From the NCBI RefSeq assembly GCF_055900595.2, contig NZ_CM148325.1: a stretch of DNA of 64,000 bases. One strand, 5' to 3'. How positions within the stretch are numbered: the first letter of the stretch is position 1; each line of letters begins with the position of its first letter. A model generated the notes under the pieces. The model was not told the origin of the DNA and ran no database searches. It was given only the letters and a program-made list of their open reading frames with translations. This document shows positions 54,263 through 54,438 of this stretch, in pieces. Position numbers and translations under genes: made by a program.

Positions 54263-54268
54263 TGAATG

Positions 54269-54295
54269 AAATGCCGGATCTTGTATCCGGCATTT
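54269..54295 (+). terminator. Intrinsic terminator downstream of tsx
   Basis: Hairpin aaatgccggatc-ttg-tatccggcattt immediately after the tsx stop. Confidence 0.65.
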
Positions 54296-54325
54296 CAGAT
54301 TGTTAACAACGTGCGCTTTGTTCAT

Positions 54326-54424
54326 GCCGGATGCGGCGTAAACGCCTTATCCGGCCTACAAAAGCACGTAAATTCAATACATTGCTGAGATTACTTAGGC
54401 CTGATAAGCGTAGCGCATCAGGCA
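54326..54424. repeat. BIME: two REP elements in inverted orientation between tsx and yajD
   Basis: gccggatgcggcgtaaacgccttatccggcctac (canonical REP) and, inverted, ttaggcctgataagcgtagcgcatcaggc. Confidence 0.85.
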
Positions 54425-54438
54425 ATTTTGCGTTTTAA

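Follow-up and report, generated by a model that had tools for sequence, protein, structure and literature searches.

REPs are thought to have been spread and reshaped by a REP-associated Y1 transposase (RAYT, or TnpA_REP), and the BIME-1 family of mosaics corresponds to the RIB/RIP elements, whose flank motifs are named A and B. By the published definition a BIME-1 is a single-copy combination of a z1 and a y REP whose L linker is long and conserved and in many cases contains an IHF site, and a BIME-2 is a combination of z2 and y in tandem (PMC3333891). The substrate rules given for TnpA_REP are a 5' GTAG and a mismatch in the stem, with cleavage at the inverted REP or in the linker, and the GTAG is reported to be essential for binding by the REP-associated transposase (PMC3333891). 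In Pseudomonas, two inverted REPs and the sequence between them form one repeated, apparently mobile and RAYT-associated unit, the REPIN (PMC2817692), which differs from the unit described below in its REP sequence family and in its host. The closest described element is REP37 of E. coli K-12, at 430969-431066 between yajD and tsx; this and the other curated K-12 REP names used here were taken from the supplementary tables of a 2026 preprint that reuses the EcoCyc repeat list, REP features being absent from the RefSeq annotation of MG1655.

The DNA analysed here (the window) is a stretch of 64,000 nucleotides of an E. coli chromosome, in reverse orientation relative to K-12 MG1655. Its gene map was assembled from the list of open reading frames and the RefSeq annotation of the near-identical strain Z0117EC0005, which differs from window positions 6919-64000 at 11 positions (99.98% identity). 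The spacer between the convergent genes tsx and yajD occupies 54263-54438, exactly 176 bp from stop codon to stop codon, and the K-12 spacer is of equal length, with 95% identity over an alignment of 216 bp that extends 20 bp into either coding sequence. K-12 REP37 maps to window 54325-54422, and the element is thus already catalogued. A 2.5-kb piece around it (53000-55500, under which lie yajI, tsx, yajD and secF) was matched over at least 80% of its length in 5421 of 5426 complete E. coli genomes. An identity of 99% or more to this piece was reached by only 18 records (5421 fell in the 95-99% band), so that the window represents a rare allele lineage at the tsx-yajD locus.

The features of the locus, with window coordinates and strand, are:

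53378-54262, + strand: tsx (nucleoside channel) coding sequence, from the open reading frame list and the Z0117EC0005 annotation; its stop codon is the left bound of the spacer
54267-54297, no strand assigned: predicted tsx/yajD bidirectional terminator hairpin, with a 13-bp perfect stem and a 5-nt loop; the K-12 counterpart has been mapped
54297-54436: BIME-1 mosaic, single copy, about 139-140 bp, by alignment with unlinked K-12 BIME-1 copies
54297-54325, + strand: left flank motif (AGATTGTTAACAACGTGCGCTTTGTTCAT), a non-REP part of the repeated unit that aligns with K-12 flanks
54326-54359, + strand: Y-type REP, agreeing with the consensus at 33 of 34 positions, with its CTAC foot at 54356-54359
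54360-54394, + strand: L linker, 35 nt, joining the REPs tail to tail and homologous to K-12 BIME-1 linkers
54395-54423, - strand: Z1-type (short Z) REP, inverted, agreeing with the consensus at 28 of 29 positions
54424-54436, + strand: right flank motif (AATTTTGCGTTTT), common to K-12 BIME-1 copies and forming the right end of a 139-bp indel
54439-54786, - strand: yajD (HNH nuclease family) coding sequence, from the open reading frame list and the annotation; 15 nt separate its stop codon from the Z1 stem

The spacer holds two separate things, a GC-rich hairpin following tsx and one copy of a BIME-1, and on the two strands it folds far better than shuffled controls (z = -6.4 and -5.9). The identity, anatomy and copy number of the element, the unit that is gained or lost and its phyletic pattern were all established directly from the genomes compared. 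The BIME-1 is wholly extragenic, between the two stop codons, and no tandem repetition was found in the 176-bp spacer. A preliminary description of this DNA had placed an inverted REP pair and a terminator between tsx and yajD, and both were recovered (Y, E=2e-13; Z1, E=4.2e-8; 13-bp hairpin at 54267-54297). The extent that it gave, 54326-54424, encloses the REP pair, but the repeated unit is larger, running from about 54297 to 54436 with conserved non-REP flanks, its right boundary being uncertain by a few bases within a T run.

For these comparisons REPs were collected by nhmmer in 300 kb of unlinked K-12 DNA, and three profile HMMs were trained on 23 Y copies, 20 long-Z copies and 3 short-Z copies. 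The Y REP of the spacer has one mismatch to the consensus GCCGGATGCGGCGTGAACGCCTTATCCGGCCTAC, quoted in PMC12306157, and scored 46.1 bits with the Y model, the E-value above referring to the 64-kb window; the Z1 REP, likewise with one mismatch to its consensus, scored 29.1 bits with the short-Z model and only 11.8 bits with the model for Z2. In 100 dinucleotide-preserving shuffles neither consensus was matched. The Rfam model naRNA4, derived from REP325, gave a partial match to the Y REP (40.4 bits, under its gathering score of 59.5), and at gathering thresholds Rfam reported no REP-type family in the whole window. Its only calls there were the small RNA sraA (22415-22510, + strand, 106.7 bits) and the signal recognition particle RNA ffs (4667-4763, - strand, 68.1 bits). 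Matches to the 99-bp REP core were present in 5425 of the 5426 E. coli genomes, at a median of at least 37 places per genome, which bears out the earlier view of a typical E. coli intergenic repeat. Together with the shuffles, the Y score and an identity of 91% over 138 nt to an unlinked copy, these counts refute, for this spacer, the proposal that the palindromes are chance or locus-specific hairpins outside the REP family, and we give that proposal practically no credence; it applies only to two other junctions of the window, which are treated below.

The arms of the Y REP are 86% complementary, and in folds of both REP hairpins an internal loop provides the mismatch inside the stem. The two REPs differ at the foot. 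The Y REP has CTAC, and thus GTAG on the - strand, whereas the Z1 foot (54395-54398, read on the + strand) is TTAG in the window instead of the GTAG that K-12 and E. albertii have there. The rules derived in vitro (PMC3333891) therefore predict impaired recognition of the Z1 arm by a RAYT, and the sequence prerequisites of a RAYT substrate appear to be present on the Y arm only. No RAYT gene was found in the window. The conserved core ATTCAATACATTG at 54372-54384 within the L linker agrees at 12 of 13 positions with the IHF consensus WATCAANNNNTTR; by its family membership the linker is likely a candidate IHF site, and at the level of DNA it would be there that IHF bound.

The arrangement of REPs in the K-12 sample was used to place the element in a class. 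There, each locus with a short Z (yqeA-yqeB and pitA-uspB) has one copy of it, opposite one Y and separated from it by a linker of some 35 nt, and the long Z alternates with Y in tandem arrays, for example between eco and mqo (L009:4417-5071). As this agrees with the published definition, the short Z can be equated with Z1 and the tsx-yajD element classed as a BIME-1: it has one Y and one inverted Z1, is single and has a homologous 35-nt linker. Neither feature of a BIME-2 was found, the second REP being Z1 rather than Z2 and the unit standing alone. With the BIME-2 arrays (eco-mqo, and REP325/naRNA4, Rfam RF02564) the tsx-yajD unit has the Y REP in common, but in those arrays the Z2 REP is longer, the linkers are short and the units repeat in tandem, none of which is seen here.

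Homology with the unlinked K-12 BIME-1 copies extends beyond the REPs, reaching AGATTGT..GTGCGCTTTGTTCA on the left and CAGGCAATTTTGCGTTT on the right, and the left flank is homologous to the flanks at yqeA-yqeB and pitA-uspB in K-12 and to window 38313-38335. Over about 138 nt the unit is 91.3% identical to the copy at pitA-uspB and 85% identical to that at yqeA-yqeB; the former value almost equals its identity to the K-12 and E. albertii orthologues (both 93.5%). No structural difference from the family was seen at tsx-yajD, in the Y and Z1 REPs, the IHF-type linker core, the outer flanks or the position at gene 3' ends. K-12 REP37 has the same layout of hairpin, Y REP, L linker and Z1 REP, and differs in the unit by 9 substitutions (93.5% identity); its Y REP reads TTTGTCCGGCCAAC, the window's CTTATCCGGCCTAC being closer to the consensus, and the terminator stem beside it differs from that of the window by two compensated base pairs. 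Every defining feature of REPs and of BIME-1 that could be tested was observed, except for the Z1 foot, which is TTAG for GTAG. The element is the orthologue of K-12 REP37, a standard BIME-1 beside a known bidirectional terminator, and nothing about it is new in kind. Its significance is mainly one of annotation, in that the strongest structure of the spacer can be attributed to a catalogued BIME-1 (K-12 REP37) and a bidirectional terminator already known, and the feature thereby leaves the list of unexplained ones.

The hairpin begins 4 nt 3' of the tsx stop codon and has its arms at 54267-54279 and 54285-54297, as located by an inverted-repeat search. The transcript ends and the Rho-binding peak considered here come from the K-12 literature. 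In a supplementary table of the 2026 preprint, K-12 431093-431125 is a SEnd-seq bidirectional terminator in both log and stationary phase, affecting yajD:tsx:secD:secF, in a row without REP assignment; these coordinates map to window 54266-54298, that is to the hairpin, and the end of REP37 is 27 nt away. Pairing in the stem was kept in 96% of cells across six alleles, and in K-12 and O103 two inner stem pairs are changed on both sides with pairing kept, which was probably a single event. The U-tract that follows the hairpin in the window is weak (AUUUCAGAUU), and a simple terminator scan called the hairpin in K-12 and missed it in the window and in a short allele of the spacer; as these calls were inconsistent for one hairpin in three alleles, the scan carries no weight here. 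Judged by the K-12 experimental table and by homology, the hairpin would be the shared bidirectional 3'-end signal of the tsx and the secD-secF-yajD transcripts.

A different division of labour, in which the REPs and not the hairpin are the main stop for tsx, for yajD or for both by acting as partial Rho-dependent terminators, is in our judgement quite improbable. It can draw on the partial Rho-dependent termination by REPs reported in the literature, on the 78 REPs that lie inside bidirectional terminators (2026 preprint tables) and on the weakness of the hairpin's U-tract, with the hairpin uncalled by the scan in the window. It can also draw on a Rho-binding peak that abuts REP37: the peak, obtained in vitro with NusG, covers K-12 430776-430968, lies antisense to yajD on the strand that is sense for tsx, and comes within 1 nt of REP37 (2026 preprint tables). 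However, in the same tables no bicyclomycin-sensitive transcript overlaps this peak, and the overlapping transcript ends in K-12 coincide with the hairpin, at a distance from REP37 and without a REP in their row. The short allele, moreover, has the hairpin alone, so that the hairpin is sufficient there.

We consider it very probable that the spacer works as a bidirectional terminator hairpin accompanied by a REP37-orthologous BIME-1 that arrived by the spread of the REP family and has a role, here inferred, in the yajD 3'UTR. On this account the BIME-1 would be a non-autonomous REP-family repeat, a discrete unit of about 139 bp within the T run that follows the hairpin. Transcripts from tsx would meet the hairpin first and the BIME by read-through only; such read-through would then encounter the BIME as a secondary barrier and, beyond it, the Rho-binding region antisense to yajD. 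For secD-secF-yajD transcripts the order is reversed: they pass through the whole BIME first and would end at the hairpin, which makes both REP stem-loops part of the yajD 3'UTR, where they may slow 3'-exonucleolytic decay of the mRNA. The best-supported role of the BIME-1 can accordingly be described as that of a 3'UTR element, which may hinder 3' exonucleases and form a secondary barrier to read-through from tsx. Protection of the mRNA, binding of IHF and dependence on a RAYT are each proposed for tsx-yajD.

The element might instead act on DNA in the way described for BIME-2 arrays, by serving as a topological insulator or a site for gyrase. Gyrase binds REPs, cleaves BIMEs and prefers Y REPs (PMC6379681), and the location between converging, highly expressed units is one where positive supercoils accumulate. 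Such a role is nevertheless very unlikely, because the published enrichment concerns BIME-2, with tandem arrays of Y and Z2: here a single Y is joined to a single Z1, the Z REP scores 11.8 bits with the Z2 model against 29.1 bits with that for Z1, and there is no tandem repetition.

The spacer occurs in two states. The long allele, with the BIME-1, was found in 3804 of 5426 E. coli genomes, and the short or empty allele in 1596, where the spacer is 37 bp long and consists of the hairpin followed by TTTTTT. The indel that separates them is the whole 139-bp mosaic including its non-REP flanks, and since these 139 bp sit within a T run, its boundaries are ambiguous by a few bases. Both neighbouring genes are intact in either allele. 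The element is therefore dispensable, about 29% of the genomes being without it. These allele counts, and the mosaic as the unit of the indel, are small additions to a polymorphism described long ago; the split of 3804 against 1596 genomes is also a ready-made natural experiment on the effects of REPs at 3' ends.

A search of other species with a degenerate nucleotide pattern encoding the Tsx C-terminus gave 108 loci, in 15 of which yajD converges on tsx within 900 bp. E. albertii has a 176-bp spacer with the BIME-1 present (Y, E=3.9e-12; Z1, E=1.1e-8). The spacers of Salmonella enterica subsp. arizonae and diarizonae, 76-78 bp long, contain two hairpins and no REP. Four loci with spacers of 111-119 bp, two of them from Citrobacter, have REP-like sequences of their own and a terminator. 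At six loci (L044, L026, L067, L110, L114 and L119, three of them from Kluyvera) the tsx-yajD spacer measures 480-497 bp; the one scanned, from Kluyvera genomosp. 3 (L044:7692-8171), contains a match to the rdlD antitoxin RNA (RF01813, 62.6 bits, above the gathering score, at L044:7935-7998), which points to a type I toxin-antitoxin module of the ldr/rdl kind in that spacer. The simplest reading of this distribution is that the BIME was gained after the Salmonella split and before that of E. coli and E. albertii, with subsequent loss in part of the E. coli lineages; recombination between lineages may also have contributed to the pattern.

How the loss came about is a matter on which we offer a tentative and rather unlikely suggestion, namely that the 139-nt mosaic moves as one insertion/excision unit in the terminator U-tract and that the empty sites arose by excision of the whole unit, for example by a RAYT transposase. 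The filled state is common to E. albertii, and the empty site is clean, with a restored U6 tract, in 29% of E. coli. If this were true, the two states would form a natural allelic pair for measuring the effect of a BIME-1 on 3'-end formation in a highly expressed porin gene and in the secDF-yajD operon.

The same polymorphism bears on the idea that the BIME-1 is a neutral, selfish passenger without measurable local function, which persists only for being harmless behind a terminator between converging genes. The proportion of genomes without the element (29%) argues against any important local role, and presence and absence in 3804 and 1596 genomes, with the flanking genes intact in both, fit a passenger well. 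So do the decay of a sister element at yajR-yajQ, the unrelated small elements that the junction holds in other genera (REP-like in Citrobacter, the rdl/ldr module in Kluyvera) and the report that mRNA half-lives are unchanged genome-wide by REPs. Against it, the element has been kept at 93.5% identity since before E. coli and E. albertii split, its L linker and flanks are conserved to the same degree as its REPs, and higher expression is reported for convergent gene pairs that have a REP than for those that lack one. We hold a purely neutral passenger to be possible but somewhat doubtful, and favour the 3'UTR role set out above.

The preliminary description had also counted canonical REPs at three further junctions, and at the coordinates that it gave sites are indeed present. 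The sites concerned are:

38226-38335: decayed BIME-1 between yajR and yajQ by HMM and alignment, with Z1 at 38226-38254 (+ strand), a degenerate Y at 38279-38312 (- strand) and a flank at 38313-38335
16382-16406, no strand assigned: hairpin between queC and fadM, K-12 REP41, with a 9-bp perfect stem (GCCGGATGC/GCATCCGGC)
40463-40502, no strand assigned: two overlapping hairpins between yajL and thiI, K-12 REP39, the stronger a 12-bp perfect stem at 40477-40502

Scanned with the REP models, these junctions divide. At yajR-yajQ both REPs were significant (Z1, E=2e-6; Y, E=6.8e-5 for a match at 38279-38308), as they were at tsx-yajD, and to that extent the count stands. The left-flank motif is as at tsx-yajD, the linker is shortened to about 24 nt and lacks the IHF core, and identity to the tsx-yajD unit is 77%, with a gap in the linker. 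This element was found in 5284 of the 5426 genomes at a single matching place per genome, being too diverged to match other REPs by megablast. Judged by its sequence, it is a decayed or atypical BIME-1.

At queC-fadM and yajL-thiI, by contrast, there was no significant match: the Y model aligned at 16382-16397 over its positions 1-16 only (E=0.35) and at 40463-40474 over its positions 1-12 only (E=0.53), both at chance level. By the consensus test, which the preliminary description had itself proposed, these hairpins are not canonical REPs, and it is to them alone that a reading as chance or locus-specific hairpins applies. They have the GCCGGATGC stem in common with the head of the Y REP; their stems are perfect, and both the stem mismatch and the CTAC foot are absent from them. 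In the 2026 preprint tables, REP41 (K-12 464814-464838) is a SEnd-seq bidirectional terminator; 2 nt from it there is a Rho-binding peak, which a bicyclomycin-sensitive transcript overlaps. K-12 443004-443039 is listed there both as REP39 and as a SEnd-seq bidirectional terminator. REP39 and REP41, although labelled as REPs in the K-12 curation, thus resemble ordinary bidirectional terminators.

The statement that REPs explain most of the strong palindromes outside the accessory regions did not hold, for several of the strongest short hairpins of the window are plain terminators, among them those at 34429-34458, 5235-5260, 54867-54894 and 54267-54297. Missing from the list of REP-type junctions was the hairpin known in K-12 as 'REP42', at 6925-6949. 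It lies in the tesB/amtB spacer (6919-6949) and is a bidirectional terminator of the form A9-hairpin-T6; beside it, at window 6919-6924, strain Z0117EC0005 carries an IS200/IS605-family insertion of about 707 bp that the window is without. Two matches to the Z2 model, at 15474-15491 (+ strand, E=0.002) and 12089-12103 (- strand, E=0.008), lie inside the coding sequences of ybaE and mdlA, respectively; they cover half a palindrome only and were for this reason rejected as REPs, being probably due to chance.

Several other genes were noted at junctions of the window. Between yajO and pgpA there is a gene for a 509-aa pentapeptide-repeat protein (46582-48111, + strand), with spacers at 46352-46581 and 48112-48287; in K-12 this junction is a 53-bp spacer only, which holds REP38, and the sequence of K-12 REP38 (pgpA/yajO) is absent from the window. 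Between cyoE and yajR, the annotation of Z0117EC0005 gives a toxin-antitoxin-like pair of a GNAT-family acetyltransferase gene and a DUF1778 gene (34601-35438) and a tetratricopeptide-repeat pseudogene (35494-36429). The same annotation also places a gene for a hypothetical protein, some 480 aa long, at 61074-62519 (- strand), between malZ and acpH.
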